From assembly GCA_041645555.1 (NCBI GenBank), contig JBAZPX010000004.1, positions 10,334 to 74,333 of the forward strand: a stretch of DNA of 64,000 bases, written 5' to 3'. Positions 3,529 through 51,508 of this stretch are shown here, one piece after another. Each line of letters starts with the position of its first letter. The first letter of the stretch is position 1. The notes below the pieces were generated by a model. The model searched no databases. It was given only the letters and a program-made list of their open reading frames with translations, and was not told the origin of the DNA. The translations under genes were made by a program, and so were the position numbers. Source of the stretch: Patescibacteria group bacterium (GTDB lineage: Bacteria > Patescibacteriota > Patescibacteriia > Patescibacteriales > JAQTRU01).

Positions 3529-3620
3529 AAAATTAAATTAAAACAGATAATTGTATCTTAAGATTTAACCCAAATAAAGTCAACCACGCTTAAAAATGAG
3601 ATTTCTAACGTGGCCAAATA

Positions 3621-3650
3621 AAAAGGGGCCCAGACGGGCCCCTTCTTTTA
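3621..3650. terminator. intrinsic terminator hairpin (bidirectional)
   Basis: aaaaggggccc-agac-gggccccttctttt: 9-bp GC stem with flanking A and T runs. Confidence 0.55.
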
Positions 3651-4103
3651 TATAAAATAAATGAATTTATAGGCCGATGCTGAGCCCCAGCCCCAAAGGT
3701 TTATTCCTTAATCCATCTAAAAAGATAGACAAGAAAATCCCTTCCTTCGAGGATAAAGCTTTTTTGCTGACTTGGAAAAAGCAACTTTTTACCGATTTGC
3801 GGTAGGACCCAACTAATTTTTGCAAATTATCAGATTCCACCTCTTTTTTGTTTTTGTTTTTTAGTTTGCTACGTCAGCTTTAGCAAAAATAAATCAGTAA
3901 AAAGCAAAGAAATTTCTCAAAAAACCAATTTTTGGGGAAATCTCTTTAAAAATATTGATTTTCAAAGAATGTCCAATAATTGTCCTATTATTATAATACC
4001 ATATAAAAACCAAAGGGTCAATTATCAGCTACTTCCAAAAAATTTAGCTAAAGTAAGCTAACATTAGTCAAAATTGTTTTTCTTATTATTTTTTAAATTT
4101 TAG

Positions 4104-4177
4104 TTGTCCACACTTAAGTCTACTAATTTGTAGACTTAAGTCCTATACTTATCCACATAGATAACAAGTTATCCACA
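4104..4177. promoter_or_regulatory. DnaA-box cluster
   Basis: TTGTCCACA at 4104-4112, and perfect TTATCCACA at 4149-4157 and 4169-4177. An AT-rich tract lies immediately upstream (3841-4100). Confidence 0.4.
4112..4141. repeat. 30-bp palindrome P1 (acttaagtctac-N6-gtagacttaagt)
   Basis: Perfect 12-bp arms with a 6-nt AT spacer. One of six related palindromes in the window. Confidence 0.8.
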
Positions 4178-4188
4178 ACTTCACTCAT

Positions 4189-4218
4189 ACTTAAGTCCAC
4201 TAAAATGTGGACTTAAGT
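4189..4218. repeat. 30-bp palindrome P2 (acttaagtccac-taaaat-gtggacttaagt)
   Basis: Perfect 12-bp arms with a 6-nt spacer. Confidence 0.8.
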
Positions 4219-4265
4219 GTTTTTAATCACATTTTCTCTATCAAAAGAACAAAAGATAAAAATAT

Positions 4266-4290
4266 TTAAGTCCACTATAAACTGGACTTT
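4266..4290. repeat. palindrome P3 (ttaagtccac-tataaa-ctggacttt), imperfect
   Basis: Same half-site family. It ends 8 nt from the tRNA-Cys 3' end. Confidence 0.65.
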
Positions 4291-4298
4291 AAAAAAAG

Positions 4299-4369
4299 AG
4301 GCCTGAGCGGGAATCGAACCCGCGATTGAAGTTTTGCAGACTCCTGCCTTACCACTTGGCTATCAGGCC
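4299..4369 (-). tRNA. tRNA-Cys (GCA)
   Basis: The reverse complement folds as a cloverleaf: acceptor GGCCTGA/TCAGGCC, anticodon arm GGAGT-CTGCAAA-ACTTC, T arm GCGGG-TTCGATT-CCCGC. Confidence 0.9.
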
Positions 4370-4486
4370 GTGGATATTTATTTTATATTATAAATATATC
4401 AGAACTTCCTTTAAAAAACAAGGATAAACCCCTCCCATTTTTAAAAAAATAAAAAACCCTCTTGCAAGGGCTACTGACTGTCTAAA

Positions 4487-4513
4487 TTCGCATGTGCCGC
4501 ATTTGTAGCGCGG
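4487..4513. repeat. 27-nt hairpin motif ttcgcatgtgccgcatttgtagcgcgg (second copy at 42217-42244)
   Basis: Near-identical string at both loci; contains the hairpin ccgc-atttgtag-gcgg. Confidence 0.6.
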
Positions 4514-4575
4514 CTTTTTCCCGACCGCGTGTCGCTAAAGCTTTAGCGGTGGCGCAAGGGAAAAATAACTTAAAT

Positions 4576-6049: not shown

Positions 6050-6520
6050 CTAACCTTTAGACACATCAGCCCCGCCAACCCAATTCATACTGTTAAACAC
6101 GAAATAAGTAATGGCATAAGCTGAAACTGTAATAATTAAGCCGATTACCGCCCGCCAGATTGTTTCTTTCGCTTCCGTCATTTTTTCTTCATTGCCGGAC
6201 GCGGTCATCCATTTATACCCGGCCGTAATCATCAAAACTAAAAAAATAACGCCCAACAATCCTAAAAAAGCCTGGATTACCACGGCCAAAATTCCCGCAA
6301 AAGATGATCCGGTGGCGGCGGCAAAACCGGATTTACCCCTAAAAGCTTCCGCCTGCTCGCTACCTGCCGGGCCAAACCCTTGGGCTAAAGCCAAATCAGC
6401 GATTCTAAAATTTAAGACAGACAACACTAAAAATGCTAAAAAATAGTTTACCCCGTTAGCCCCGCTTAGAAATTTATTTCTAACGGGGTTAATAGGGTTT
6501 GTTTTTTTATAAAAATTCAT
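6050..6520 (-). CDS. TrbC/VirB2-like (T4SS pilin-like) small membrane protein, paralog 1
   Basis: Signal region plus two TM helices. Shared loop motif ITAGYKWMTASGNEEKM. Confidence 0.7.
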   Translation of the reverse strand: MNFYKKTNPINPVRNKFLSGANGVNYFLAFLVLSVLNFRIADLALAQGFGPAGSEQAEAFRGKSGFAAATGSSFAGILAVVIQAFLGLLGVIFLVLMITAGYKWMTASGNEEKMTEAKETIWRAVIGLIITVSAYAITYFVFNSMNWVGGADVSKG

Positions 6521-6554
6521 AGAAAATTATATAAGTAATTATAACATCTGACCT

Positions 6555-7055
6555 CTACTCAAGATCAAGAATATCCTGACAATCACCTCCCCGCAGTTCT
6601 TTGCCCTCGCCGCAGGGCCCTGGCTCAACTGGTACTACTCCACTACCCGACGGAGTTAAAGTCTGCCTGGTTATCCGGTCAAAGATAAAGAAACTAATGG
6701 CATAAGACGCAACAACAATAATTAAGCCAATAACCGCAGCCTTAATTATATCCTTGGCCCTAGTGACTTCCTCTTCACTGCCCCGCGCCATCATCCATAT
6801 ATAACCGCCGTAAAGCATTAAGGCTATAAAAATAACGCCTAAAACGCTTAAGAAAGCGCTTACCGCTGTGCCGGCAATGGCTGAAACCGTAGTTTGGTTA
6901 ACATTAGTTGAATAACCGCTGGCAGTTCCCAATCCTTCAAGCCCGCTTTTTATTGTCGGGCCCTTATAACCTTCTGCCCCGAAAACAAAATAAGGAAAAA
7001 TTAAAATCAGGACCAACAAAATTAAAATGGATATTTGCTTTATTATTTTTAACAT
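6555..7055 (-). CDS. TrbC/VirB2-like small membrane protein, paralog 2 (Cys-containing C-terminal extension)
   Basis: ORF trimmed to Met31 (MLKIIKQISILILL). Motif LYGGYIWMMARGSEEEV. Extra tail ..PCGEGKELRGGDCQDILDLE. Confidence 0.7.
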   Translation of the reverse strand: MLKIIKQISILILLVLILIFPYFVFGAEGYKGPTIKSGLEGLGTASGYSTNVNQTTVSAIAGTAVSAFLSVLGVIFIALMLYGGYIWMMARGSEEEVTRAKDIIKAAVIGLIIVVASYAISFFIFDRITRQTLTPSGSGVVPVEPGPCGEGKELRGGDCQDILDLE

Positions 7056-7062
7056 ATATATA

Positions 7063-7503
7063 TTAATTAAAACCGGTAACAGCTGACTGAAAATAATTTT
7101 TAGCCAGCATATATAAGACAAAATAAGTAACGGCGTAAGCGGCAATAATAATAATTAAACCTATAACCGCGCTTGTTATCAGATCTTTAGCTTTAGTGAC
7201 CTGCTCCTGATTGCCCCGGGCATTCATCCAGAGATAACCGCCGTAAAGGGTTAAGAGTACGAAAATAACTCCCAGAACAGAAAGAAAGACCCCTATAATC
7301 CCGCCGGCAACCGTGGCTATGCTTATTTCTCCGCTTTGCACTTTTGCTGTTTCGTATTTAGCCGATTTAGCCGTTTCTTCCAATAAAGAACCGACCGAAG
7401 CCGGCTGTTCGCTCCCGGCTTGAACCGCGTTCATGGCGAATGAGCTTATTAAAACAGCTAAAATGGTAAAAATAATTTTTTTTAAAAATGTCTTATAAAC
7501 CAT
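7063..7503 (-). CDS. TrbC/VirB2-like small membrane protein, paralog 3
   Basis: Signal peptide ..MNAVQAGS. Motif LYGGYLWMNARGNQEQV. Confidence 0.7.
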   Translation of the reverse strand: MVYKTFLKKIIFTILAVLISSFAMNAVQAGSEQPASVGSLLEETAKSAKYETAKVQSGEISIATVAGGIIGVFLSVLGVIFVLLTLYGGYLWMNARGNQEQVTKAKDLITSAVIGLIIIIAAYAVTYFVLYMLAKNYFQSAVTGFN

Positions 7504-7636
7504 ATAATTTGAAACTCCCTCAAGCTAATACTCGGGGAATCTTTAACTTCGTTTCGTCGGAGTTGAAATCCGCCGAAGCGAAAAAGCTATTTATCCCTCA
7601 ATCTAACTATTGGAAAATTTCGCGAAGGCGGATAAA

Positions 7637-8071
7637 TTAGATCGTATAGCCTTCCAGGCCGGCAAAAGTTTTAACGAAGAAATAAGCCAGGAAGTATAAA
7701 ACGGAAAAAATTACGATGCCAATAACCGCGTTTCTAATTCTCTTTTTTGACAGCTGGATTTTTTCGATGTTGCCGGCGGCCGTCATCCATTCATAACCGG
7801 CTATCACTATCCTCACTATAAACATAAAACCGAGGAAAGGAGCGATAAAAAGAACTCCGCCGATATATTTAGCGATTGTCGCCGCCGCGCCCCCTTCCGC
7901 CAATTTAGTATCATAAACGCCCGTCTCCGAAACCCCTTTGTCTAAATTTTTTCCCCAATCGCCGATCTTAGGCTCTTCGGCCTGCGCCCAGCTTATATTT
8001 AACGCGAAAGCGAAAAAAAGGAAAAAAATAAGAAACCAAACCGTTATTTTTGCCGCGTCTGCCTTGCCCAT
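7637..8071 (-). CDS. TrbC/VirB2-like small membrane protein, paralog 4
   Basis: Signal peptide ..ISWAQAEE. Motif IAGYEWMTAAGNIEKI. Confidence 0.7.
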   Translation of the reverse strand: MGKADAAKITVWFLIFFLFFAFALNISWAQAEEPKIGDWGKNLDKGVSETGVYDTKLAEGGAAATIAKYIGGVLFIAPFLGFMFIVRIVIAGYEWMTAAGNIEKIQLSKKRIRNAVIGIVIFSVLYFLAYFFVKTFAGLEGYTI

Positions 8072-8074
8072 ATC

Positions 8075-8512
8075 TTAAATCTTAAAAATATTAAACCCAA
8101 CGCCGAATCCTCCGCTGGCTATGCTTAAAACAACATAAGCGAATATATAAGCGGCGAAAACTATTAAAACGCCGATCGCGCCGTTTTTTATTTTATCCTT
8201 TCCCTTTTTCACTTCTTCATCATTGCCGCCGGCGCCGACAATATCAAGCGCTCCCATCCAGATTAAAACCATAAAAACAACGCCGGTAAAAGCCATAACG
8301 GCTCCGATAATTTTTCCGATTAAAGAGGCAATCTCGGTTTTGGCTGTTGTACCCTCAGTTCCAGCTCCATAACCTATGCCTTTGCCGGTATTTTCCAAAC
8401 CGCCCAAAGGTGATTTTTCGGCACTTACCGCTCCCGCGGCCAAGAGGAAAGAAAAAACAAAAAAAGATAATATGGCCAGACTTATTAGTTTTTTGCTGTA
8501 TAAAAAAACCAT
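8075..8512 (-). CDS. TrbC/VirB2-like small membrane protein, paralog 5 (divergent loop)
   Basis: Same topology. Loop WMGALDIVGAGGNDEEV. Confidence 0.6.
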   Translation of the reverse strand: MVFLYSKKLISLAILSFFVFSFLLAAGAVSAEKSPLGGLENTGKGIGYGAGTEGTTAKTEIASLIGKIIGAVMAFTGVVFMVLIWMGALDIVGAGGNDEEVKKGKDKIKNGAIGVLIVFAAYIFAYVVLSIASGGFGVGFNIFKI

Positions 8513-8684
8513 TTCTCTATTTAGACCCGCTACTTAATAATCTTTCGTCGCGAAATGAAGAAATTTAGAGCGAAAAATTTAAAAAGCGACGATGTTTATA
8601 TGCTTATATAAGCGGAGGAGCTTTTTTAATTTTGCAGCCGAAATTTCAAATTGCAGCAGAAAAAATTATTAAGCAGCGGGTCTA

Positions 8685-9095
8685 CTATAAAACTTTGTTT
8701 AAAATCGTTTCGCCAAGGAACCTGGTGATTAAATAAGCAGTGGCTACTATAATTAAGCCGATAGAAGCTTGGGTGATTATACTGATGGCCTTGCCGACCT
8801 GCTCTTCATTGCCCCGGGCCGTCATCCAGAGATAGCCGCCGTAAATAACTAAAACAAAAAATAAAATACCGATAAAAGACAGGCCGACGCCGATAATCCC
8901 GCCGATAAGACTGGGGACATCGGTTTGGCTTGGGACTTTGCCAAATCCCTCCTTAGCCGTATCTTCCAGCCCCTTTGACGCCTTTTCTAAGCCCGTGGCA
9001 TTATCAGCCGCTTGGACCAGACAGATTTGCCCGGCAAAAACCGTGAAAGATAAAACCGCGACAAAAATTATAATGAAAATTTTCCTCATATCCAA
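8685..9095 (-). CDS. TrbC/VirB2-like small membrane protein, paralog 6
   Basis: Motif IYGGYLWMTARGNEEQV. Signal peptide ..LVQAADN. Confidence 0.7.
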   Translation of the reverse strand: MDMRKIFIIIFVAVLSFTVFAGQICLVQAADNATGLEKASKGLEDTAKEGFGKVPSQTDVPSLIGGIIGVGLSFIGILFFVLVIYGGYLWMTARGNEEQVGKAISIITQASIGLIIVATAYLITRFLGETILNKVL

Positions 9096-14390: not shown

Positions 14391-14457
14391 ATGACCAGAA
14401 AAATAAAAAGACCTTAATCGGCCTTTTTATTTTATTATTTTATTATTTTTTTATTTT

Positions 14458-14868
14458 TTAAGGTATGTATTTTTTATATTCCTTTTCCTCCTCAAGCTTT
14501 TTTTTCCTTTCCGGTATTTTCAACAGGGATTTAGCAATAAAAACAAGCCAAACCAGCATAAAAACCGCCCAAAGAAGAAGCCAAAAACGGGAGGACAGGA
14601 AGGGAATAAATTCATAATTAAAAAAAAGTAGAATTAAACCGATAAAAGCATTGGCCAGGGAGAAAGAAGAAAGCCGCCGCCAAAAAGAAGCATAAAGGCC
14701 TCCTTTTTTAGCGATAAAAAGACGGTAGAAAAGAAAAAAAACGACCAAAGCCAAAACAAAAATAATAAAAATCTTTTGGTAAATAGGCAGAAGCGCGTCC
14801 GGCCTGAGATTAAACCAAAATTTTAGTGATAAAAGATTCCCCATAATTTTAAAAATAAAATAATACAA
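14458..14868 (-). CDS. hypothetical membrane protein
   Basis: Four hydrophobic helices and a K/E-rich C-terminus. The start may be the internal Met at 14844. Confidence 0.45.
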   Translation of the reverse strand: MYYFIFKIMGNLLSLKFWFNLRPDALLPIYQKIFIIFVLALVVFFLFYRLFIAKKGGLYASFWRRLSSFSLANAFIGLILLFFNYEFIPFLSSRFWLLLWAVFMLVWLVFIAKSLLKIPERKKKLEEEKEYKKYIP

Positions 14869-14941
14869 GAATAAAATAATAAAGTAATTTATTTCAGCAT
14901 CCTATTATTTTATTTTTATATTATTTTGTTATTTTATTATT

Positions 14942-15496
14942 TTACAGCTTAACAAATAAAATCCCAAAATGATACTGGCCGGCTTCAAATTCGTCCTCTA
15001 TTTCCAACCCTAATTTCTTTGCTCCAATTTTCAAGAGATCCGGCTTAACCCTTTCTTCTGGCGGCGGCCCAAAAGGGGAAGACACGTTCTTCCACTCTAC
15101 TACTAATAATTTCGCCCCTTTTTTGAGCATCCTTATGGCTTCCCGCAAGATTTCCACTCTTTTATGGGATTGATACAAGGTATTTATAAGCAAAGCCACA
15201 TCAAGGCTGCCCGATTCTATCCTGGTGGCTTTAAAAACCTCCAAATCGCTCCAAACCGTCCTGATGTTCCCTATGTTTTCCTGCTTAACCCTTTTATCAA
15301 TTCCCCCTAAAACCGTTTTTAAAATATCAACGGCATAGACAACGCCTCTTTTGCCAACCATTTTCGCGGCGGGAAAAATAAAATGCCCGGAAGCGCCGCA
15401 GCCCAAATCAGCTACTTTTATATTTTCCGTGATTTGCGCTTTGCTTAATATAAAATCCGCGTCAAGCAAAGCATTTCCTCCTGTAACCCTAAACAT
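14942..15496 (-). CDS. class I SAM-dependent methyltransferase
   Basis: Motif I VADLGCGASGHF; 184 aa. Confidence 0.65.
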   Translation of the reverse strand: MFRVTGGNALLDADFILSKAQITENIKVADLGCGASGHFIFPAAKMVGKRGVVYAVDILKTVLGGIDKRVKQENIGNIRTVWSDLEVFKATRIESGSLDVALLINTLYQSHKRVEILREAIRMLKKGAKLLVVEWKNVSSPFGPPPEERVKPDLLKIGAKKLGLEIEDEFEAGQYHFGILFVKL

Positions 15497-16220: not shown

Positions 16221-16673
16221 TTATTTCTTAAACCAATTGGAACTTGCCCAACGCTCGCCTCCCGGGACCCCTAAAGTAGAAAAAATAAAACCAATAATTA
16301 TATAAGCGGTAAAAACAATTACCAAACCGATAACAGCATTTTCTATAGCGTCTTTGCCTATATTAATCTTTTTATCTTTACCGCCTTCGGCCCTAGTGCT
16401 CACACCAGCTAAAATCATCATTAACCCTCCATAAATAAACATCAACAAAGCCAATGAGCCGACAATCCCCAAAATCCACTGAGTAACGCTTATGCCCACT
16501 CTAACAAAATCGTTTAAAGTAAAATCACCTTTTTCCAAAGAACCTTCGTATTTTACCGGGCTGCTGTTTCCTAGCAGAGACTGTGCCCAACACGCATTAG
16601 CAGACAAAACAATAAAACAATAAAACAATAAAACAATAAAACAAATAAATTTTTTACTTTTAATAAATTTCAT
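16221..16673 (-). CDS. TrbC/VirB2-like small membrane protein, isolated paralog 8
   Basis: ORF trimmed to MKFIKSKKF. Loop IYGGLMMILAGVSTRAEGG and the same two-TM topology. Confidence 0.6.
   Translation of the reverse strand: MKFIKSKKFICFIVLLFYCFIVLSANACWAQSLLGNSSPVKYEGSLEKGDFTLNDFVRVGISVTQWILGIVGSLALLMFIYGGLMMILAGVSTRAEGGKDKKINIGKDAIENAVIGLVIVFTAYIIIGFIFSTLGVPGGERWASSNWFKK
16606..16646. repeat. 8-bp tandem repeat (aaaacaat x4 plus one imperfect unit) inside the signal-peptide coding region
   Basis: Read directly: units at 16606, 16614, 16622 and 16630. Encodes FIVLLFYCFIVL. The unit length is not a multiple of 3. Confidence 0.85.
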
Positions 16674-16730
16674 AATTCTCCTGCCCGCTCGCAAGCTTGC
16701 CTTGCAGGCGGGTAATTCTTAATTCATGCT

Positions 16731-18143
16731 TTATAATTCTTCCTTCGTTATCGTCTGCTGGACCCTTTTCGCCCCCAAATTTAGAATTTCTTCAATTTTC
16801 CCATCGCCCGCTACCGCCGAATCAATCATCTCCCCCATAATTAGTTCAGCCGCATTGGCATCTTCGCCATGATACCAGCTTTGGGCGGTTAGAACCTGGC
16901 CGGCAAAAACGTTTACATTCTCGTCTTCAATCTGCTCATTAACTAAAGAGCGCAGAGCGGTCGGTTTTTTTGTCTTAGCCAGATATAATTTTGCCTGTTC
17001 GGCCTTAGTGGCAAATTGGATAAAATCCCAGGCTTCGTTTATATATTTGCTTTTATTAGAAACCGTCTCCACCCAATAATTGGCAAAGTTTGTATTACCT
17101 AAGTTGCCCTCTATCTGCGGCAGTTTAGCAATGGCGAAATTCAATTTCGGCGCCCTGGCCTCTATAGTCGGAAGATGGTAAGCATAGCCAAACATCAAGG
17201 CAAGTTTGCCGGCGATAAACATTTCTAGGGAATTATCCAAACTGCTGTTCCAGCTGTAAACCTCTTTGGCTGGGTTGGAAAAATCCGTATAAAAACGCAG
17301 GGCCTCCAGACCGGGGCTGTACTTCTGTTCTTTTAAAGCCTCGGGAATCAGGTTAAAAACAATGTTACCGCTTTCATCCTCCATAACTGCGCCGTTCTGC
17401 ATCATTAGGATAGACAAAATATCACCATAGCGCTCTATATTTTTGCTTCCTCCCAAAGCCACGCCTGATTGGATAATCTTCCCGGCGGTATCCTGTTTGG
17501 TCAATTTTTTTACGGTCTGTTGAAATTCCTGGTTCCAAAAAGAAGGCGGCTCGGCCACGCCGGCGTTATTAAAAAGGTCCTTGTTATAATACATGGCTAG
17601 GGTATCAAGAGCTAGGGGCAAACCGAATATTTGTTCGCTTGTTTTACCGGTCTTTGAGTCTGTAACCGGCAGGACTATATCATCATACACTACATCAACG
17701 AAATTATCTTTTACATTCCGGAAATTTATGCTTTTTGTTGTTTTTAATTCCTGTACGATTTCTTTTTTAATCGTGCCTTTTTCAACCGGATAAACCATAG
17801 TAATTTCCGCCGGCAAAGGCGCCAGTTTGCTTTGGTATTTTTTTATCCAGGTATTGTGGAGGGAAAGAATGTCCGGTCCCTTATCTTCGGCCATCGCTTC
17901 TAAGAGCGCCTGCTCATATTCGTTATAGCGCAATTTTCGATAGTTAATTGTTATGTAGGGATGAAGAGTTTTATAATTGGCCATAATTTCCTCAAAAGCG
18001 TCCGGACCGTCCCAAACCCGCCAATAATTTAAAACTACCGGCTTCATCGCCTCTTGCGTTGCCTTGTCCGCTCCCTTACAGCCAAAACCAGAGGTTAAAA
18101 GAAAAGAAAAAATAAGCAAAAGAATAAATAATTTGTTCCTCAT
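16731..18143 (-). CDS. ABC transporter substrate-binding lipoprotein (family 1, sugar-type)
   Basis: 470 aa. Lipobox SGFGC. Typical extracellular solute-binding protein layout. Confidence 0.7.
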   Translation of the reverse strand: MRNKLFILLLIFSFLLTSGFGCKGADKATQEAMKPVVLNYWRVWDGPDAFEEIMANYKTLHPYITINYRKLRYNEYEQALLEAMAEDKGPDILSLHNTWIKKYQSKLAPLPAEITMVYPVEKGTIKKEIVQELKTTKSINFRNVKDNFVDVVYDDIVLPVTDSKTGKTSEQIFGLPLALDTLAMYYNKDLFNNAGVAEPPSFWNQEFQQTVKKLTKQDTAGKIIQSGVALGGSKNIERYGDILSILMMQNGAVMEDESGNIVFNLIPEALKEQKYSPGLEALRFYTDFSNPAKEVYSWNSSLDNSLEMFIAGKLALMFGYAYHLPTIEARAPKLNFAIAKLPQIEGNLGNTNFANYWVETVSNKSKYINEAWDFIQFATKAEQAKLYLAKTKKPTALRSLVNEQIEDENVNVFAGQVLTAQSWYHGEDANAAELIMGEMIDSAVAGDGKIEEILNLGAKRVQQTITKEEL

Positions 18144-18153
18144 ATATTATTTT

Positions 18154-18247
18154 CTACAAATTACAAATCTATTACAAATTTACGAATACAATATAAAACT
18201 TTTTAGCAAGAATTTGTAAATTTGTAAGGAATTTGTAATTCGTAAGG
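18154..18247. repeat. TACRAAT hairpin element, copy E1
   Basis: ctacaaattacaaat..tacgaataca / ..tttgtaaatttgtaagg..tttgtaattcgtaagg: inverted arms built from tacaaat/tacgaat heptamers. Confidence 0.8.
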
Positions 18248-18328
18248 TATATTATTATTATAACAAATTTGAGAAAAAATAGAAAATCCAACCTTCCCAT
18301 CACCTAACACCTAATACCTAAATCTAAT

Positions 18329-30525: not shown

Positions 30526-30601
30526 TTCTAGGAAATCCCGTTTTTTCAGATTATTAACCTAATATCTAATAAGAAGTTACACGGTTCGCCAAATTTTAAT
30601 T

Positions 30602-30698
30602 CCCACAAATCAACAAATCTTTTCACAAATTTACAAATACGCTATAAAACGTTTCTACAAAAATTTGTAAATTTGTAATAAATTCGTAATTTGTAAAG
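30602..30698. repeat. TACRAAT hairpin element, copy E2
   Basis: cccacaaatcaacaaat..cacaaatttacaaatac / ctacaaaaatttgtaaatttgtaataaattcgtaatttgtaaag. It ends 1 nt before ATG 30700. Confidence 0.75.
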
Positions 30699-30699
30699 T

Positions 30700-31194
30700 A
30701 TGATAAAGCATGAAGAACAGCGGGTGGGTGTTTTTGTTGATGTGTCCAACATGTACCATTCCGCCAAGAATCTTTACAGTAAGAAAGTTAATTTCAAAGA
30801 AATCCTGAAAGATGCGGTGGCCGGGCGGAAACTAATCCGGGCTACCGCTTATGTTATAAAAACGGAAAGTGAGGAAGAATTGCACTTTTTTGAGGCCTTA
30901 AGCCAGCAGGGCTTTGAAGTCAGGATGAAAGACTTGCAGATTTTTGCCGGGGGCATAAAAAAAGCGGACTGGGACGTAGGCATAGCGGTTGACGCCATAA
31001 AGTTAGGAGATAAGCTTGACGTCATAATTTTAGTTTCAGGAGACGGCGATTATTTGCCCTTAATGAGTTATCTGCAAAATACCAAGGGGTGCCTGGTGGA
31101 AGTAATGGCTTTCCGGCAGACCGCCTCTTCAAAATTAATAGAAGAGTCAGACGATTTCACAAATTTAAGCGATAATAGAAAATATCTAAGATAA
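30700..31194 (+). CDS. NYN-domain (LabA/DUF88-like, PIN-related) putative RNase
   Basis: VGVFVDVSNMYHSA..ATAYV..DWDVGIAVDAI...DVIILVSGDGDYLPL. Confidence 0.75.
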   Translation: MIKHEEQRVGVFVDVSNMYHSAKNLYSKKVNFKEILKDAVAGRKLIRATAYVIKTESEEELHFFEALSQQGFEVRMKDLQIFAGGIKKADWDVGIAVDAIKLGDKLDVIILVSGDGDYLPLMSYLQNTKGCLVEVMAFRQTASSKLIEESDDFTNLSDNRKYLR

Positions 31195-31200
31195 TAACTC

Positions 31201-31292
31201 CTACAAATTACGAATTTATTACGAATTTACAAATATAATATAAAACGTTTTAATGAAAATTCGTAAATTTGTATAAGATTTGTAATTCGTAG
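31201..31292. repeat. TACRAAT hairpin element, copy E3
   Basis: ctacaaattacgaatttattacgaatttacaaata / aattcgtaaatttgtataagatttgtaattcgtag. Confidence 0.8.
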
Positions 31293-31326
31293 ATAATAAA
31301 TTACTAATTAACTAATTACTAACTTA

Positions 31327-31398: not shown

Positions 31399-33678
31399 AT
31401 GAAACAAGAAGAACAAGTTTTTGAAACGAAGTGGCTTGACCGCCCACTCACTATTAAAACGGGCAAATTAGCTAAACAGGCAGATGCCGCCGTTACCGTC
31501 CAGTACGGGGAAACGGTAGTTATGGCTACGGTCGTGGAATCAAAAGGAGAAAGAGAGGGAATTGATTATTTCCCTTTGATGGTCGATTTTGAAGAACGGC
31601 TTTATGCCGCCGGAATTATTAAGGGTTCGCGCTGGATAAAAAGAGAAGGCCGGCCTTCGGATGAGGCGGTTTTAACCGGCCGGATGATAGACCGGGCAAT
31701 CCGGCCTCTTTTTAACGAAGCGTCCCGAAAAGACGTCCAGGTTATTATTACGGTCCTGTCCGTTGACCAGGAAAACGATTATGATATCGCTTCTTTAGTC
31801 GCCGCTTCCGCGGCCCTGTCTATTGCCGGCGTTAATTGGAACGGTCCGATTGCCGGTATAAGGGTCGGCCGTCTTGAGGGCAAATTTATTTTTAATCCGA
31901 CCTATGAAGAAAGAATAAAAAGCGACCTTGATTTAATCGTGGCCGGAACAGAGAAAAAAGTAATAATGCTAGAAGCCGGAGCGAGCGAAGTAAAAGAAGA
32001 AGAAATAGAAAAAGCTATTATGGCCGGGCAGAAGAATCTTCAGGAAGCGATAAAGTTAATTAAAAAAATGGTTAGCGCAGTTAAGCCAGAAGCAAAAATA
32101 GCCAAAAATAAATTAAAAAGCCAGGAAGAGATAGAAGCGGAAAAAGAAAAAGAAAAACTATTCACGGAAACGAAAAAATGGCTTAAAGAAAATATCGCTC
32201 CGATTCTTTTTGATAAAACTTATTATACTAAAGGAGAGAGAAAAGCAGCTGTCAAAGCGATTGAGGAAAAACTGGACGAATATCTTTTCTCGTCCGGCAT
32301 CGGACGCGACCGCCGGCAGGAAATAATTAAAAAACTGGTTTCTCCGGCAGTTGAAGCTGAGGTCACAACGGCAATTTTAGAAAATAAAAAACGAGTTGAC
32401 GGAAGGAAACTTGATGAAATAAGACCTTTGACGGCCGAAGCCGGGATCCTCCCGCGCAATCACGGTTCCGGACTCTTTTCCCGCGGCGAAACCCAGATTA
32501 TGTCTATTGTCACTTTGGGCGCGCCCGGATTAGAGCAGTCTTTAGAAGGCCTTGAAGGCAACAGTAAAAAAAGATTCATGCACCATTATAATTTTCCGCC
32601 CTATAGCGTCGGTGAAGTAAGCCCCTTGAGAGGAGCGGGCCGAAGAGAAATCGGGCATGGCGCTTTGGCGGAAAAAGCTTTAATGACTCTTATCCCAGCT
32701 AAAGAAGATTTTCCCTATACGATCAGATTGGTGAGCGAAACCCTTGGTTCAAACGGATCTTCTTCTATGGGCTCAACTTGCGCCTCCAGCTTAGCCATGA
32801 TGGACGCCGGCGTGCCAATTAAAAAAGCCGTAGCCGGAATTGCTATGGGCCTGGCTTCTAACGCCGACATGAGCCAATGGGAAATATTAACCGACATCCA
32901 GGATTTAGAAGACGGTAAAGGCGGCATGGACTTTAAAGTCGCCGGGACTCGAGACGGTTTAACCGCCATTCAGCTTGATACTAAAACCGACGGTCTGTCT
33001 GAAGAAATAATTAAAAAAACTTTAAAGCAGGGAAGGATAGCTTTAGATAAAGTTTTGGCAGTTATGGAAAAAGAGATTAAGGAACCGCGGCCGGAACTGT
33101 CTAAATACGCTCCCCGCATTATTTCTTTCCGCATTGATCCGGAGAAAATCGGTTCAGTTATCGGTCCGGGCGGAAAAATTATTAATAAAATAATCGCGGA
33201 AACGGAAGTAACGATTGATATCGAAGACGACGGCTTAGTGATGATTTGCGGCCTTAACCCGGAAAAATGCCAGGAAGCGGCTAAGCAGGTAAAAGACATA
33301 GTCCGGGAATTCGCGGCCGGAGAAATCTTTACCGGCAAAGTTGTCCGGATGCTTGATTTCGGAGCCTTCATTGAATTAGTCCCGGGCCATGACGGCATGG
33401 CGCACGTGAGCGAACTGGCGCCTTACCGCATCGGCAAGCCAAGCGATTTCTTAAAAGTCGGGGATACAGTCACGGTTAAAATTAAAGAGATAGACGAGCA
33501 GGGCCGGGTTAACTTAACTTTGAAAGGTTTGCCGGAAAACGAGCATCTCTGGAAAGACGGTAAAGGTAAATCTGAAGGCAACGGATTCGGGGGCGGCGAT
33601 GGAAGGCCAAGATTCGGAGGCGGAGGCGGACGAGACAAATTCTCCGGACGCGGAGGCGGAGGCGGACGAAGGTTCTAA
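31399..33678 (+). CDS. pnp: polynucleotide phosphorylase with a Gly/Arg-rich C-terminal tail
   Basis: 759 aa. Two RNase PH domains, KH and S1 (FTGKVVRMLDFGAFIEL). Tail GGGDGRPRFGGGGGRDKFSGRGGGGGRRF. Confidence 0.9.
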   Translation: MKQEEQVFETKWLDRPLTIKTGKLAKQADAAVTVQYGETVVMATVVESKGEREGIDYFPLMVDFEERLYAAGIIKGSRWIKREGRPSDEAVLTGRMIDRAIRPLFNEASRKDVQVIITVLSVDQENDYDIASLVAASAALSIAGVNWNGPIAGIRVGRLEGKFIFNPTYEERIKSDLDLIVAGTEKKVIMLEAGASEVKEEEIEKAIMAGQKNLQEAIKLIKKMVSAVKPEAKIAKNKLKSQEEIEAEKEKEKLFTETKKWLKENIAPILFDKTYYTKGERKAAVKAIEEKLDEYLFSSGIGRDRRQEIIKKLVSPAVEAEVTTAILENKKRVDGRKLDEIRPLTAEAGILPRNHGSGLFSRGETQIMSIVTLGAPGLEQSLEGLEGNSKKRFMHHYNFPPYSVGEVSPLRGAGRREIGHGALAEKALMTLIPAKEDFPYTIRLVSETLGSNGSSSMGSTCASSLAMMDAGVPIKKAVAGIAMGLASNADMSQWEILTDIQDLEDGKGGMDFKVAGTRDGLTAIQLDTKTDGLSEEIIKKTLKQGRIALDKVLAVMEKEIKEPRPELSKYAPRIISFRIDPEKIGSVIGPGGKIINKIIAETEVTIDIEDDGLVMICGLNPEKCQEAAKQVKDIVREFAAGEIFTGKVVRMLDFGAFIELVPGHDGMAHVSELAPYRIGKPSDFLKVGDTVTVKIKEIDEQGRVNLTLKGLPENEHLWKDGKGKSEGNGFGGGDGRPRFGGGGGRDKFSGRGGGGGRRF

Positions 33679-33726
33679 ATAACAAAATAATATAAAAATA
33701 AAATAATAAAATAAAATTTGTATAAA

Positions 33727-33764
33727 CGTAGGGGCAGCACAATATGCTGCCCCTACGTGTTTTT
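33727..33764 (+). terminator. intrinsic terminator after pnp
   Basis: cgtaggggcagca-caata-tgctgcccctacg followed by tgttttt. Confidence 0.75.
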
Positions 33765-37979: not shown

Positions 37980-39533
37980 TTATTTAATAATTCTTACTAA
38001 ACCCTTGTCCGCGTCCACCTCTACCCTATCTCCATCTTTTAAAACTTTAGTGGCGATTTTCGTCCCGACCACGCAGGGAATTTTTAATTCCCGAGCCACA
38101 ATCGCCGCGTGGCAGGTCAAGCCGCCGATATTAGTGACAATGGCCGCGGCTTTTTTCATAGCCGGCACCAAGGCCGGATAAGTGGTTTCCGAAAGCATAA
38201 TGTCCCCTGGCTTCATTTTCGGCATATCTTCAATCGTTTCTATAATTTTTACTATTCCCCGGGCTTTGCCAGGAGAAGCGGTCTGGCCGGAAAGCTCATT
38301 AACTTTCTTAATTTTTTCTTTCTCCCACTTCGTCTTTTTTAAAAAATCATGCGCCCTTTTCCCGGAATAAACATAAACTTTTTTCCAGGTGCCGTGCATA
38401 ACAGAAAATTTAGGTCTTTCGTCCAGGTCCCTGGTGTTAAATTTACCAGCCAGGAGCGCTTCCCCAAACTCTTCCCTGGTCATAAATTCCGCCTGCTTGT
38501 AGCTTATAAACAACCGCCGGGCAATTTCTTTAACAAACTGGTTGGCCACATAAGCGCCAAAATACATGCAATCCTTGCGGTAAGCTTTCAGCCAGACAAT
38601 ATAGCGGGCCTCCCTAAAAAGTTCTTCGCGCTTGGCATCAAATTTTAATTTAGCCAGAAAATTTTTCTGCTCTTTTTTTAGCTTGCTATATTTAACTTCT
38701 GATTCTTTAAGATACTCTCTAGTTTTTCCTTCCCGAATAAGGCCTCGCCAAACCTCAAGGAAATAATCAAATTCCAAAATCGGCCCGCGATAATTATAAT
38801 GAAGCCAAAACCATTTTTTCTGATGATTTTCTATCTTTTTAAATAAAGCTGGTTTTTGCTTTTTAAGCTCCTTCTCTATTTTAAAAACGTCATCATTCTT
38901 CTTAAAAGTCAGAGCGGCTTTTTTATCTTTAGAAATTTCATAAGCCATTTTTAGGCTTTCCTGATTTTCAATTTCTACAAAACTGGGGCGTAAGGGCGTG
39001 GTAACAAGAGGAAAAACGCTGGACGGCTCAAGCTTTAATTTATCTTTTTTAATTTTGTCTTTTAAATAATTAAAAAGGTAATTGGAAAATAACTGGTAAT
39101 CGGCATCAATCAGCCAGGTCGTGGCCTGGCCGAAGCCGTGGCTTCTGATCTGCAATTCAAGCAACCGGTCAAATTTTTTTATCAACTGTGCGTCGGATAA
39201 TTTTTTTAAATTAAAATTCAATAAAGATTTAGAAAAAAGCAAATATTCTTTGGCAAAAATTTCCACATTCCTATTCATCTTTGCCAGCCAGGGCAAATCC
39301 GTTGTCGCTTTGAAAAAAATATTTTTTACCATTTTATCAAATTCTCTCCGCACGTAACAAAGATTAAAAACCCCGTCTCTTATCACCCAAATTAGCTGCT
39401 TGAGAGCGTCTCCCAACCCTTGTTGCTTCAAACGTCTGCCATAATCAATAAAAACATTATAGGTCATAATATAATTAGCATCCGGAATTCTTTCCGCCAC
39501 AAACCAGATGGTTTGTTTCTTGTTTTTTGCCAT
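37980..39533 (-). CDS. unknown helical domain fused to a C-terminal PEP-utilising swivel domain
   Basis: 517 aa. C-terminus PGKARGIVKII..MKPGDIML..GGLTCHAAIVARELKIPCVVGT. Confidence 0.7.
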   Translation of the reverse strand: MAKNKKQTIWFVAERIPDANYIMTYNVFIDYGRRLKQQGLGDALKQLIWVIRDGVFNLCYVRREFDKMVKNIFFKATTDLPWLAKMNRNVEIFAKEYLLFSKSLLNFNLKKLSDAQLIKKFDRLLELQIRSHGFGQATTWLIDADYQLFSNYLFNYLKDKIKKDKLKLEPSSVFPLVTTPLRPSFVEIENQESLKMAYEISKDKKAALTFKKNDDVFKIEKELKKQKPALFKKIENHQKKWFWLHYNYRGPILEFDYFLEVWRGLIREGKTREYLKESEVKYSKLKKEQKNFLAKLKFDAKREELFREARYIVWLKAYRKDCMYFGAYVANQFVKEIARRLFISYKQAEFMTREEFGEALLAGKFNTRDLDERPKFSVMHGTWKKVYVYSGKRAHDFLKKTKWEKEKIKKVNELSGQTASPGKARGIVKIIETIEDMPKMKPGDIMLSETTYPALVPAMKKAAAIVTNIGGLTCHAAIVARELKIPCVVGTKIATKVLKDGDRVEVDADKGLVRIIK

Positions 39534-39542
39534 ATCAAAAAA

Positions 39543-41420
39543 TTAACTCTTTTTTAATATTTTTACTAAGCCCTTATCCGCATCCACCTCTACTATATCC
39601 CCATCTTTTAAAACTTTAGTGGCGATTTTCGTGCCGATAACGCAGGGGGTATTTATCTCCCGGGCGACAATCGCGGCGTGCGAAGTTACTCCGCCCTGGT
39701 CTGTGACAAAAGCCGCGGCTTTTTTCATGGCCGGCAATAAATCCGGCTGGGTGGAGATGGAAACTAAAATATCTCCCGGTTTCATCTTCCCCATATCACG
39801 AATTACATTTATAATTCGAACCACTCCTTTGGCATACCCCCTGGCCCCGCATTGGCCCTTTATTTCCGAGACCTCCTTTATTTCATCTGGCTCTATATAT
39901 TTTACTATTTTTTTGGCCTCCTCGCCACTATAGAAAAGATGCTCACCCTTAGCCGTGTAATAAACGGAAAAGTTAACTCTTTTTTTTATCTCTCCTTTAT
40001 CTAAAACACCGCTAAATAAACCGTTATAAATTTCTTCGCTGGTCATGAACTTTACCTCCTTTAAGGAGAGACCCAGGCGCCGGCCAATTTCGGAAAGCAC
40101 CGGCACCATCCGATAAATAGCAAAAATCTGGGCATAGCGCCGATAAATTTTTGTTACCATAAACTCGCCCCAGGCGTTAAAAAATTTCAGGAGCCGGCCT
40201 TCTATTTTTAATTTTTTAATCAGCAATTCCCGCTCGAGCCAGTCCTTTTTCCGTTTAGCCTCGCTTTCCTTAAATGCCTTGGCCAAATTATTATTATTGC
40301 TGACCAACCTCACTAAAGCTTTTAAATAATGCTCGAGGCTATAAATGCCCTGCTCTTCGGTAAAGAGAAATTTAGTATAAAAATATTTAGTATAATGGCT
40401 TTCCAAATCGTCTAATATGTCCTTTCTGATTTTGCCTTTCAACTGCCTTACTTTTTCTTCAAATTTCTCTTCGTATTCGGGGCTGTGGGCGTATAAATCG
40501 AATTTCTTTACTTCCTCGTCCTTGAATCTTTTAAAAAGTTCCCTGAATAAATTAAGCTGCTTTTTATCTTCCTGAATTTTGATGCCTATTTTTATAAGAT
40601 CATTTTCTTCTATCGCGAGCAAAGATAATTTTTCCGGCTGGGCAAGAATTACTAAGCTCTGGCCGATATTTTTTTCCGATACCCCCAGGCCGGTTAAGAT
40701 TTTTTCTCCCCGGCCGGTTAAATTATTAGAAAACATATCCGCTGCGACCGGAATCCAGCCCCATTGGTAATATTCGGTATGGATGTCTTCATGGCCCTTA
40801 TACAAATTCCAAAGCTCCTTATCGGATAATTTTCCCAAATTATCTTCGGGCAGTTTAGAAACATACTGCCGGAGCTTATCAGAATGATTGACAATTTCTT
40901 TATTGACCTTGTCCATAAAATCCTGATCGCTCTCGAATTTATCAACCAGATGCTCCCCCACTTCATAAGCGTCTTTTTTATCATAATAAAACCAGAGATT
41001 GTATTTCTTATGGACCGAGACCACTTTTTTATAAGCCCGGCCGCCCGGAGAAGCAAATTCATCCACGAAACAGTTGGCAAATATTTGGTAAAAAAACGGG
41101 TCAGTATTCTTTAATTCTTCGGCCAGCAGCCACTCGGTCTCAAATTTACTTTTTGAGTCACCGGCCCTGTTTTTATTAAATAAATTTATCAGCTCTTTCG
41201 CGGAGTTAAAATTAGAATTTAGGCCATAATATTTTTTATTGCCTTTGCTAATTACTTTTATTACTTCCTCTCGGGCTAATTTCGTAAGCTCCCTGGTAAT
41301 ATTAGCCGGGTCTTTGCTTAACTTTGAGGCAATCTCTGATAAATAAAAAGTCTTGCCTTGATTTTGGGTTAATAAATCAAGGATTTCGTAAGAAGTTTTG
41401 GATTTAAATAAATTTTTCAT
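39543..41420 (-). CDS. winged-HTH domain plus unknown helical domain plus C-terminal PEP-utilising swivel domain
   Basis: ORF trimmed to MKNLFKSK. N-terminal wHTH (YLSEIASKLSKDPANITRELTKL). C-terminal GGVTSHAAIVAREINTPCVIGT. Confidence 0.7.
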   Translation of the reverse strand: MKNLFKSKTSYEILDLLTQNQGKTFYLSEIASKLSKDPANITRELTKLAREEVIKVISKGNKKYYGLNSNFNSAKELINLFNKNRAGDSKSKFETEWLLAEELKNTDPFFYQIFANCFVDEFASPGGRAYKKVVSVHKKYNLWFYYDKKDAYEVGEHLVDKFESDQDFMDKVNKEIVNHSDKLRQYVSKLPEDNLGKLSDKELWNLYKGHEDIHTEYYQWGWIPVAADMFSNNLTGRGEKILTGLGVSEKNIGQSLVILAQPEKLSLLAIEENDLIKIGIKIQEDKKQLNLFRELFKRFKDEEVKKFDLYAHSPEYEEKFEEKVRQLKGKIRKDILDDLESHYTKYFYTKFLFTEEQGIYSLEHYLKALVRLVSNNNNLAKAFKESEAKRKKDWLERELLIKKLKIEGRLLKFFNAWGEFMVTKIYRRYAQIFAIYRMVPVLSEIGRRLGLSLKEVKFMTSEEIYNGLFSGVLDKGEIKKRVNFSVYYTAKGEHLFYSGEEAKKIVKYIEPDEIKEVSEIKGQCGARGYAKGVVRIINVIRDMGKMKPGDILVSISTQPDLLPAMKKAAAFVTDQGGVTSHAAIVAREINTPCVIGTKIATKVLKDGDIVEVDADKGLVKILKKS

Positions 41421-41640
41421 ATTAATTCGGATGAGCGCAATTTGTAGAATGCGCATTTAATACTTATTTTTGTTTAATAAACAATAATTTTTGTCTATTA
41501 AACATAATACCTCTCTTCTCGCCTAAATGTCAAGACCGAAAAAGGAACTTGACTTCTATTAAAGATTAAGTTAATATCAAACTATTAAATCATTAAAGGC
41601 AGTCTATATTTCTAGCTCTCTAGGAAGCTGCAAAATAATT

Positions 41641-43556: not shown

Positions 43557-43604
43557 TAAAAAGGTGCGCTCTAACTAACGTACCTTTTTTATATTATTTT
43601 ATTT

Positions 43605-45037: not shown

Positions 45038-45047
45038 ATAAATAGCT

Positions 45048-45140
45048 CTACGAATTACGAATTTTTTACGAATGTACGAATACTAATATAAACATTCTTA
45101 ATATAAAATTCGTATATTTGTACTTATTCGTAATTCGTAG
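45048..45140. repeat. TACRAAT hairpin element, copy E4
   Basis: ctacgaattacgaattttttacgaatgtacgaatac / aattcgtatatttgtacttattcgtaattcgtag. Fills the infB-rbfA spacer. Confidence 0.8.
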
Positions 45141-51052: not shown

Positions 51053-51508
51053 TCATTTTTTTACAAAAAAATTGAAAATTATAGGAGGATAAACAATAAC
51101 AATGTTTGTAGGTCCTGAAGAGGAAATAACATCCTCTGACGGTTGTACCTTTCTCAACATTCTTGAGCGTATATACTCCTCAGTCACAAAACCCAACACC
51201 GCAGTCAGTTCGGAGACCGGAAGATGGTATCGGCCGGGGTTAGAAAAGTCAAAATAAAGGATCAAAGTCCCAAATAACCACCAGATAACCACCCACCAAC
51301 CACCAGGCCTGTTCATCGTGGGGATATTTAGCTGCCTTTTCGCGTTATTGGCAGTAACATACTCCCTTAGGAAACCAATAAACACAACTACGAGAATACC
51401 AGATGCTGGGTCGTTAATATAGCAATTGAATTTCAGCCAGAGAAAAATAAGGGTCGAAATACTCCAAACATCAATCATCCGGAAAAATCTTTTATTCTTG
51501 TCCAACAT
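51053..51508 (-). CDS. hypothetical membrane protein (orphan, SD-led)
   Basis: SD ggagg 7 nt upstream. Three or four hydrophobic helices. G+C-richer than the core genes. Confidence 0.45.
   Translation of the reverse strand: MLDKNKRFFRMIDVWSISTLIFLWLKFNCYINDPASGILVVVFIGFLREYVTANNAKRQLNIPTMNRPGGWWVVIWWLFGTLILYFDFSNPGRYHLPVSELTAVLGFVTEEYIRSRMLRKVQPSEDVISSSGPTNIVIVYPPIIFNFFVKK

Follow-up and report, generated by a model that had tools for sequence, protein, structure and literature searches.

GlnR and TnrA are autoregulated winged helix-turn-helix (HTH) regulators of the MerR superfamily, which bind as dimers to palindromic operators. At datA and DARS2, sites for IHF and Fis accompany the DnaA boxes, and the core sites of tyrosine recombinases have inverted arms around a short spacer, in a geometry like 12+6+12. 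To our knowledge, gene regulation and replication control are almost entirely unexplored in the Patescibacteria (Candidate Phyla Radiation), few of which have been cultivated and whose regulators are mostly annotated as 'hypothetical'. Here, we describe a palindrome, P, in a stretch of 64,000 nucleotides from a Patescibacteria group bacterium (contig JBAZPX010000004.1, positions 10,334 to 74,333; this whole stretch is called the window), where it occurs near DnaA boxes, tRNA genes and a thioredoxin reductase gene. At the chromosomal origin (oriC), a basal unwinding system with DnaA boxes, a GC spacer, DnaA-trios and an AT-rich region has been described (PMC8287927, PMC6669920), in the order of a box, up to 16 bp, a GC-rich spacer, NAN trinucleotide repeats (three or more) and an AT-rich region (PMC8287927). 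For the Peregrinibacteria, short repeats have been mentioned in general statements, as have DnaA-box-like sequences close to origins defined by skew (PMC4736985), and our literature search for a described origin, palindrome or regulon of Patescibacteria turned up these general statements and nothing more.

The P sites are probably, although by no means certainly, operators of an autoregulated, lineage-specific regulator, which would probably be dimeric and would most likely be the protein family F1 described below; one of the modules, T1, appears to add a cluster of DnaA boxes outside the origin. F1 as the binder, its dimeric binding and the direction of regulation, as well as the binding of DnaA at T1 and its action there, are inferred from sequence. 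The consensus aCTTAAGTCYACa-N4-tGTRGACTTAAGt would be an operator-type site of a sequence-specific, probably dimeric protein that is conserved in the Patescibacteria. The most likely binder, F1, is predicted to be a MerR-type winged HTH protein of about 95 amino acids (aa), of the HTH_17 type, and its gene lies outside the window.

The window was scanned for AGTCYAC-N6-GTRGACT with up to two mismatches allowed and compared with 100 shuffles. Six matches and no others were found, with cores starting at 4117, 4194, 4269 (one mismatch), 51834, 51881 and 53036, against a chance expectation of 0.11, and none of the 100 shuffles reached six. The window therefore carries a T1 module 3' of tRNA-Cys (P1 to P3), a T2 module upstream of trxB (P4 and P5) and a site in a tRNA spacer (P6):

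4112-4141 (core 4117-4136), unstranded: P1 palindrome, ACTTAAGTCTAC-TAATTT-GTAGACTTAAGT, member of T1
4189-4218 (core 4194-4213), unstranded: P2 palindrome, ACTTAAGTCCAC-TAAAAT-GTGGACTTAAGT, member of T1
4265-4292 (core 4269-4288, one mismatch), unstranded: P3, a degenerate palindrome, TTAAGTCCAC-TATAAA-CTGGACTTTAA, member of T1
51832-51855 (core 51834-51853), unstranded: P4 palindrome, AAAGTCCAC-TAAAAC-GTGGACTT, member of T2
51876-51905 (core 51881-51900), unstranded: P5 palindrome, ACTTAAGTCTAC-AAAAAC-GTGGACTAAAGT, member of T2
53031-53060 (core 53036-53055), unstranded: P6 palindrome, ACTTTAGTCTAC-AATAAT-GTGGACTTTAC, in the tRNA-Arg/tRNA-Ala spacer
4298-4369, minus strand: tRNA-Cys(GCA), a conserved neighbour on the upstream side of T1
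52824-52900, minus strand: tRNA-Ala, on one side of P6
53242-53314, minus strand: tRNA-Arg, on the other side of P6

An initial annotation, made from the sequence of the window, had reported these six palindromes, and all of them were recovered at the positions given there. It had also ascribed perfect 12-bp arms and A/T spacers to P1 and P2, and their arms, ACTTAAGTC(T/C)AC, are indeed without mismatch over 12 bp around spacers of A and T. The adjacency to tRNA genes holds as well: locus 1 (P1 to P3) is directly 3' of tRNA-Cys, with P3 6-10 bp off its 3' end, and P6 lies between tRNA-Ala and tRNA-Arg. The place of P1 within T1 matches that in other genomes, the distance of 47 bp between P4 and P5 is the conserved spacing of T2, and a DnaA-box-like overlap, GGGGATA, precedes P4 on the minus strand. 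The genes of the window, including YchF, type IV secretion pilin paralogues, SMC, PNPase, IF-2, RNase HII, thioredoxin reductase and bactofilin, are those of a Patescibacteria-type chromosome segment.

For the comparison across genomes, one genome per GTDB species was scanned with the stricter pattern TAAGTCYAC-N6-GTRGACTTA, while spacings and sites were taken from a looser core pattern. The stricter pattern matched at least 119 genome stretches, mostly metagenome-assembled Patescibacteria, Parcubacteria or Falkowbacteria, and the source labels of the motif-bearing records read Parcubacteria, Falkowbacteria or Patescibacteria group; isolated single matches in unrelated high-GC genomes were in line with chance. 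Many loci contain two to five sites, with spacings that recur at about 45-48, 60-66 and 75-80 bp. Contexts were defined by tRNA mapping and by clustering of the flanking open reading frames (ORFs). Among the P loci listed, 25 clusters have the T1 context, 3' of tRNA-Cys; 24 have the T2 context, upstream of trxB, between trxA and trxB and downstream of tRNA-Arg/tRNA-Ala; and a further 24 have a third context, T3, immediately 5' of F1, an ORF family of about 95 aa. At the T3 loci, F1 is divergent from genes for an extracytoplasmic function (ECF) sigma factor, a putative anti-sigma protein and a large surface protein, and HU is adjacent. The tRNA-Arg/tRNA-Ala spacer is a minor context, found in loci L044, L050, L054 and L094, the last with five copies. 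Several context types can occur within one genome; for example, loci L011, L049 and L067 are contigs of a single metagenome-assembled genome.

A symmetrised profile of the sites has an invariant core, a strong T-T-A at positions -3 to -1 and a strong A after the core, and a variable centre. P is thus a symmetric motif with conserved half-sites that occurs far above chance in non-coding DNA, and it is found at orthologous positions before the same genes in many genomes, as would be expected of a regulon. Judged by this distribution, it is neither genome-specific nor a ubiquitous repeat; the initial annotation had named a ubiquitous intergenic repeat unrelated to tRNA genes or DnaA boxes as an outcome that would speak against its proposals, and the few fixed syntenic positions are at odds with this. 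A LexA box was considered and found unlikely, as neither lexA nor recA recurs in the surroundings of the P loci.

The F1 proteins are about 95 aa long and share the conserved core WLSVSEAAKxGGVxxKTIRRAI...YKIxxNRYxI...NTKLKNKLNQFGLGQY, which matches Pfam HTH_17 with E = 2.6e-5, just short of the curated cut-off. The family comprises 477 homologous clusters from Patescibacteria sources, labelled 'hypothetical' or 'excisionase family DNA binding protein', and none of the 477 carries a characterised name in the source annotations. An AlphaFold2 model, with a pLDDT of about 90 over residues 21-70, has a winged HTH followed by short helices, and the closest solved structures are Xis, RdfS, BldC, RacA-DNA, GlnR-DNA and CbpM, all of them MerR-type winged helices. 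The association of P with F1 was also approached from the protein side, by scanning metagenomes with an F1 alignment and taking 80 loci on F1 homology alone, 75 of which had enough upstream DNA. P, with up to two mismatches, was found within 350 bp upstream of F1 in 70 of the 75 loci, typically as three sites, and in three further loci the array was slightly more distant upstream. Its density was 6.1 per kb upstream of F1 and 0.054 per kb elsewhere in these loci, a 113-fold difference, so that a link between P and a DNA-binding protein gene is seen from the protein side too. The conserved half-sites, the fixed synteny and this array support operator or iteron sites for a dimeric DNA-binding protein, which was one of the roles proposed initially.

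In many F1 arrays, a promoter-like element, TTGCAT/TTGATT-17-TGnAAAAAT, ends 16-19 nt ahead of the first site, and the sites are therefore probably located in the transcribed leader, in a layout like that of an autorepressor. The triple P array ahead of the F1 gene in relatives would then suggest autorepression. The wing and recognition-helix residues of F1 were also compared with the operator variants; the arrays change in concert, but a clean residue-to-base rule was not obtained.

At T1, the palindromes are interlocked with DnaA boxes and are followed by a promoter and a candidate RNA gene:

4149-4157 and 4169-4177, plus strand: tandem perfect DnaA boxes TTATCCACA, between P1 and P2, 20 bp from start to start
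4104-4112, plus strand: third DnaA box TTGTCCACA, abutting P1, at the conserved 'TGTGGAaAA' position of the T1 layout
4056-4067, unstranded: AGCTAACATTAG, a nearly palindromic CTAAYRTTAG motif, with the P/DnaA-box module on one side and the RNA promoter on the other
3993-4021, minus strand: promoter-like TTGACC-17-TGgTATTAT, about 95 bp past the third box
3620-3987, minus strand: candidate structured non-coding RNA of about 368 nt, ending in a GC hairpin and a T-run; apparent downstream target of T1

Only three perfect TTATCCACA boxes exist in the entire window, two of them at T1, and the two perfect boxes and the single TTGTCCACA are those reported for locus 1 in the initial annotation. In the loci selected for P, perfect TTATCCACA boxes within 200 bp of P clusters number 47 in 58.7 kb, against 29 in the 804 kb elsewhere, which is a 22-fold enrichment, and almost all of the enriched boxes are in T1, at fixed offsets. 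The T1 layout reads tRNA-Cys, P, TGTGGATAA, 11 nt, TGTGGATAA, P, TGTGGAaAA, an AT-rich stretch with a CTAAYRTTAG-like motif and a strong promoter. Locus 1 of the window reproduces this layout exactly, and the order P-box-box-P-box is seen again in many T1 loci. The DnaA of this organism has a canonical domain IV (PRQ...GGRDHTT), for which consensus boxes are expected to be high-affinity sites. The T1 details differ by lineage: in one sub-lineage (L008, L058, L115 and L120), the palindrome arms read GATAAGTCYAC...GTRGACTTATC, and the promoter of the downstream RNA carries an extra TGTGTATAA box at about +1.

The region of about 370 nt downstream of T1 is conserved in sequence but not in reading frame. 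The consensus fold of an 11-sequence alignment has 73 predicted pairs, 35 of them with compensatory changes, and in a long-range helix GCYGAC...GTCRGC is swapped for GTTCAC...GTGAAC. A promoter-like match similar to that of the window, TTGAC-spacer-TGnTAnnnT, was found in 16 of the 25 loci searched. No Rfam 15 family was found for this RNA in the window and 18 relatives, at the gathering threshold or at E up to 10. It is a candidate for a new structured RNA of Parcubacteria that is always located downstream of tRNA-Cys, with the T1 module upstream of this uncatalogued gene at roughly -100 to -300. The AT-rich tract of about 250 bp that the initial annotation had placed before locus 1 is largely the promoter and 5' part of the RNA gene on the minus strand.

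The second locus contains a palindrome pair in front of a conserved gene:

51786-51794, plus strand: TTATCCACG, a DnaA-like box with one mismatch, conserved in the T2 layout of the window and relatives
51806-51817, unstranded: AGCTAACATTAG, a CTAAYRTTAG motif, 16 bp from the P4 core
49918-50871, minus strand: thioredoxin reductase (trxB), conserved gene downstream of the T2 palindrome pair

As had been described, P4 is flanked by TTATCCACG (51786) and TTATCCCCA (51853), and the string AGCTAACATTAG is shared by the two loci; its position at T2 was given correctly, while the copy in locus 1 lies at 4056-4067 and not at 4058-4069. CTAAYRTTAG is enriched 11-fold near P, compared with 4.9-fold for an AT-rich control, and in T2 loci its offset is constant at 16-17 bp. 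The one-mismatch boxes of T2 are conserved, one on an arm of the second palindrome and the other (AGTGGATAA) on the apparent -35 of the trxB promoter. The overlap with the -35 region is deduced from relatives, and these DnaA-like boxes may not be DnaA sites at all.

Relatives carry trxA at T2, whereas a gene for trxA/thioredoxin (WCGPC) is absent throughout the window. A stand-alone ORF of 79 aa with a GIY-YIG nuclease domain (52456-52695, minus strand) lies downstream of tRNA-Ala, at the place of the relatives' trxA, and an ORF of 151 aa (51053-51508) sits between trxB and the T2 palindromes. An element of 144 bp with inverted ends (ATGTCATTGCGAGGA...TCCTCGCAATGACAT) is inserted beside P5 at 51914-52057; it looks like a miniature inverted-repeat element, and a 35-nt copy of one of its ends, 97% complementary, is found at 47816-47850. 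The T2 region of the window has lost trxA and gained the GIY-YIG gene, the 144-bp element and the 151-aa ORF. Near P6, a 16-nt direct repeat, GTGCTCTTGGCAGGAA, at 53130-53145 and 53242-53257 is a copy of the tRNA-Arg 3' end, and the two copies enclose a GC-rich insert of about 100 bp, which suggests an insertion with duplication at the end of tRNA-Arg. Hairpin-prone GC-rich segments with a common CCGCTAWAGCTTTRGCGA core, an unexplained repeat family, occur within AT-rich intergenic DNA at 4480-4560, upstream of tRNA-Cys, and at 51670-51750, between the T2 module and the next gene.

In the mechanism that we propose, T1 would be co-occupied by DnaA, bound to a box cluster outside the origin, and by the P-binding protein, as three P sites and conserved consensus DnaA boxes are predicted to lie about 100-300 bp upstream of the strong RNA promoter. 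At T2, the P pair and the CTAAYRTTAG motif would act upstream of the trxB operon, and the single P site at 53.0 kb would act from the tRNA-Arg/tRNA-Ala spacer. A much bolder version, which we consider doubtful, is that the palindrome and the winged-helix protein form a master regulatory circuit of these ultra-small bacteria that is wired directly to the replication initiator. The protein could then co-assemble with DnaA at T1, either controlling DnaA activity in the manner of datA or DARS or coupling the cell cycle to the RNA of about 370 nt, and would also act on trxB, on tRNA genes and on its own gene beside the ECF sigma operon.

Several observations weigh against the sites being operators of F1. 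The sites are placed heterogeneously relative to the promoters, at about -100 to -300 in T1, at about -75/-120 in T2 and at +10 to +130 in F1, from which a single simple regulatory logic does not follow, and these promoter positions are consensus matches only. The T1 DnaA boxes are about 100 bp or more upstream of the only clear promoter. The E-values of the F1 fold matches are weak, at about 0.02, and co-localisation alone is not proof, as P might be recognised by another factor that has F1 among its targets. The approximately 74 kb available for this organism (the window and contig L205, introduced below), with which none of the F1 loci overlaps, yielded no F1 gene; its presence in this organism is assumed by extrapolation from relatives. 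Two further points concern pairing between the arms. The choice of arm is mildly correlated (CG 78, with about 66 expected, and TA 42, with about 30 expected), which could reflect pairing or shared ancestry, and a loose scan for a stem plus T-run, as in a terminator, was passed by P2 (plus strand), P3 (minus) and P4 (minus).

These last two points lead to the alternative that the palindromes work as nucleic-acid hairpins, whether as intrinsic terminators, as processing sites for tRNA or neighbouring transcripts or as DNA cruciforms, and the location of sites 3' of tRNA-Cys, 3' of trxA and between two tRNA genes would suit it, as would arms that reach 12 bp. We nevertheless regard it as very improbable. 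In very divergent genomes the stem sequence itself, beyond its pairing, is conserved while the loops vary, and a C arm and a T arm are mixed in 34% of sites, leaving a mid-stem mismatch in a third of them. When the arm pairs were oriented to transcription, the U.G type was counted 28 times and the C.A type 19 times on the sense strand; as this excess is not significant, there is no sign of the one-strand selection for RNA pairing that a hairpin, with pairing kept over sequence and G.U on the transcribed strand only, would show. In divergent F1 lineages, most or all of the sites in an array share one symmetric variant (AGTCTAG..CTAGACT, AGTCTAA..TTAGACT or TGTCTAC..GTTGACA), which is expected of one trans-acting factor with changed specificity and not of independent hairpins. 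Several tRNA-Cys loci have a GC-rich terminator of their own, separate from P and located between tRNA-Cys and the first P, and termination would make no sense in the arrays upstream of F1. Rfam searches of the palindrome loci, at the gathering threshold and at E up to 10, returned tRNAs and noise only. Some copies may nonetheless have a secondary role as hairpins. The explanation that we find least probable makes P a dif- or att-like core site and F1 the excisionase-type directionality factor of an element located near tRNA genes, close to the initial proposal of recombination sites of a tRNA-targeting element. The 12+6+12 geometry of P1 and P2 does resemble the core sites of tyrosine recombinases (inverted arms of 11-13 bp, spacer of 6-8 bp), F1 is labelled 'excisionase family' and matches the folds of Xis and RdfS, and locus 2 has its insertions, namely the GIY-YIG gene, the 144-bp element and the duplicated tRNA-Arg 3' end. 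These insertions, however, adjoin P sites without having P as their boundaries. The flanks are housekeeping genes that are syntenic in many genomes, there are multiple sites per locus and multiple loci per genome, and a crude regular expression for box II of tyrosine recombinases found none in 1.2 Mb of P- and F1-bearing loci, so that recombination is not supported.

The remaining alternatives give DnaA the leading part, and their weighing depends on where the origin is. Contig L205, reached through the window's last gene, matches window positions 53488-64000 with 100% identity and runs 9.4 kb further, while extending the contig leftward gained 147 bp. It carries murI, yidC, yidD and rnpA on the minus strand, followed by dnaA and dnaN on the plus strand:

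L205 16930-18417 (window-equivalent 70.4-71.9 kb), plus strand: dnaA
L205 18672-19805 (dnaA-dnaN ending at window-equivalent 73.3 kb), plus strand: dnaN
L205 18417-18672 (about 72 kb window-equivalent), 255 bp: dnaA-dnaN spacer, with TGTTGATAA twice, TTACCCACA, ATATCAACA and TTATCAACC-GCC-TTATTACTATTACC-TTTTTATATAATA

The boxes of this spacer are of the TTATCAACA type, and in TTATCAACC-GCC-TTATTACTATTACC-TTTTTATATAATA a box is followed by a GC spacer, then by trinucleotide repeats of the NAN type and by an AT-rich tract; the orientation of the box relative to the repeats is taken in part from the B. subtilis origin. The chromosomal origin is most likely located here, and T1 is most likely a DnaA-box cluster outside the origin. 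The initial annotation had argued against oriC at 4.1 kb from the non-divergent gene orientation and from the lack of dnaA or dnaN nearby. The argument holds, with no divergence of orientation and the dnaA-dnaN spacer 68 kb away; the premise about the genes is correct for the window but fails beyond it, as dnaA-dnaN begins 6.4 kb past its right end on the same contig, about 68 kb from T1.

That T1 is nevertheless a replication origin, the true oriC or a second one, modulated by a palindrome-binding regulator in the manner of CtrA or Spo0A, is distinctly unlikely. Its three near-consensus DnaA boxes (4104, 4149 and 4169) lie within 75 bp and are conserved in relatives, an AT-rich stretch follows the third box, and T1-type modules stand beside yidC or rnpA, frequent neighbours of origins, in L062 and L081. 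The AT-rich tract, however, is the promoter and 5' end of the RNA gene, and the tandem boxes, read in the TTATCCACA direction, are followed by P2 and not by a GC spacer and trinucleotide repeats, an arrangement that is better formed at dnaA-dnaN. A distinct cluster of five boxes lies downstream of dnaA in L062, apart from T1, and no gene-orientation divergence was found at T1 in 25 genomes. Skew was analysed on the third codon positions of the window and fitted with a gene-orientation term, as raw skew mostly tracks orientation (term about 0.10-0.15). The GC-skew constant was -0.07 left of T1, -0.06 +/- 0.02 between T1 and T2 and -0.13 +/- 0.04 right of T2, and the AT-skew constant was positive throughout the window. 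Neither changes sign at 4.1 kb or at 52-53 kb, and a single sign across the window fits one replichore with the origin to its right. An origin-like module in the sense of a chromosomal origin, as first suggested, is therefore not supported. Three other lines were set aside: a cumulative GC-skew minimum at 52-53 kb was rejected as an origin, as whole-sequence skew mainly follows gene orientation; a side-of-module skew regression over 8-kb loci gave small effects confounded by recurrent gene families, and only its orientation counts were kept; and NAN runs are trivial in AT-rich DNA, so that a DnaA-trio reading at T1 was not used as evidence. A weightier alternative, although still one to which we give only a minor share of belief, is that T1 and perhaps T2 are not operators but serve in DnaA control, by titration, inactivation or reactivation as at datA, DARS or the Bacillus clusters, or in RacA-like marking of origin-proximal DNA. 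T1 does have at least three boxes of predicted high affinity in intergenic DNA 68 kb from dnaA-dnaN; the perfect tandem boxes with their conserved 20-bp spacing and the third box are interleaved with P about 100 bp or more from the nearest promoter, all three P loci of the window are within about 70 kb of dnaA-dnaN, modules lie 2-4 kb from dnaA in L062 and L011, and RacA, which binds palindromes in the origin region, is among the best fold matches of F1. The match to RacA is, however, no better than that to Xis or BldC, dnaA is within the flank in only 2 of the 119 P-selected loci listed and in none of the 80 F1 loci, and P sites also stand immediately 5' of trxB, tRNA-Ala and F1, like ordinary operators. 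A plain transcription-factor role of DnaA at T1 is equally possible.

The window also contains other repeats and paralogues. Heptamer-like units of ACAAATT/ACGAATT (for example CTACAAATTACGAATTTATTACGAATTTACAAATA) make up an intergenic repeat family, the direct and inverted copies of which reach 109 nt; it is found at 18139-18255, 30590-30717, 31186-31299 and 45046-45096. Tracts of A and T only with an 8-bp period, of the TTATTTTA type, lie at several gene ends (14420-14960, 33677-33730 and 43585-43640), and one copy of 32 nt at 14903 is the perfect complement of that at 33677. Three paralogous ORFs with a terminal PEP-utilising-enzyme mobile domain occupy 37980-41456 and 48473-49912 (minus strand); DNA stretches are 63-74% identical between them, and the one at 39543-41456 carries a MarR-like HTH at its N-terminus. 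Small paralogous genes that resemble those of type IV secretion pilins, at least five in number, form an array at 6050-9095 and 16221-16694 (minus strand).

With P regarded as an operator, the analysis offers a candidate site of 26-30 bp, a named candidate family of 477 clusters and a short list of conserved target positions, together with a conserved off-origin cluster of consensus DnaA boxes interlocked with the operator and a structured RNA of about 370 nt, outside Rfam, directly downstream of T1. Should the binder be confirmed, the motif would allow the regulon to be mapped in thousands of metagenome-assembled genomes, and the likely origin in the dnaA-dnaN spacer would be useful for coverage-based estimates of growth.

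Among the described systems, the GlnR/TnrA-type regulators resemble this one in the small winged-helix fold of F1, in the two-fold symmetry of P with its non-conserved centre and in the placing of sites before F1's own gene and a few other operons. F1 differs in belonging to the HTH_17/excisionase-like branch and in its own conserved C-terminal tail, NTKLKNKLNQFGLGQY, and P differs in forming arrays of two to five sites spaced 44-97 bp apart and in its length of 26-30 bp, compared with 17 bp for the GlnR/TnrA site, its binding being predicted from sequence. Xis and other recombination directionality factors, together with BldC of Streptomyces, are the best fold matches of F1 and likewise have several closely spaced sites per locus, but P, as a true inverted repeat, differs from their direct or head-to-tail repeats, and the P loci are syntenic housekeeping regions in which the crude expression search linked no recombinase to P or F1. 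T1 resembles datA, DARS1 and DARS2 of E. coli and the B. subtilis clusters in having three near-consensus boxes away from the origin, flanked by the sites of a second protein. It differs from datA and DARS in the number, orientation and spacing of its boxes and in having P palindromes, not IHF and Fis sites, as accessory sites. With the oriC basal unwinding system, T1 shares tandem DnaA boxes in one orientation and an AT-rich stretch nearby, but the defined arrangement is found in the dnaA-dnaN spacer and is absent at T1, where neither skew nor gene orientation switches. Compared with all of these, what appears to be new is a set of operators with an uncharacterised cognate family, and an unusual composite locus in which such operators are interlocked with consensus DnaA boxes and followed by a novel RNA.

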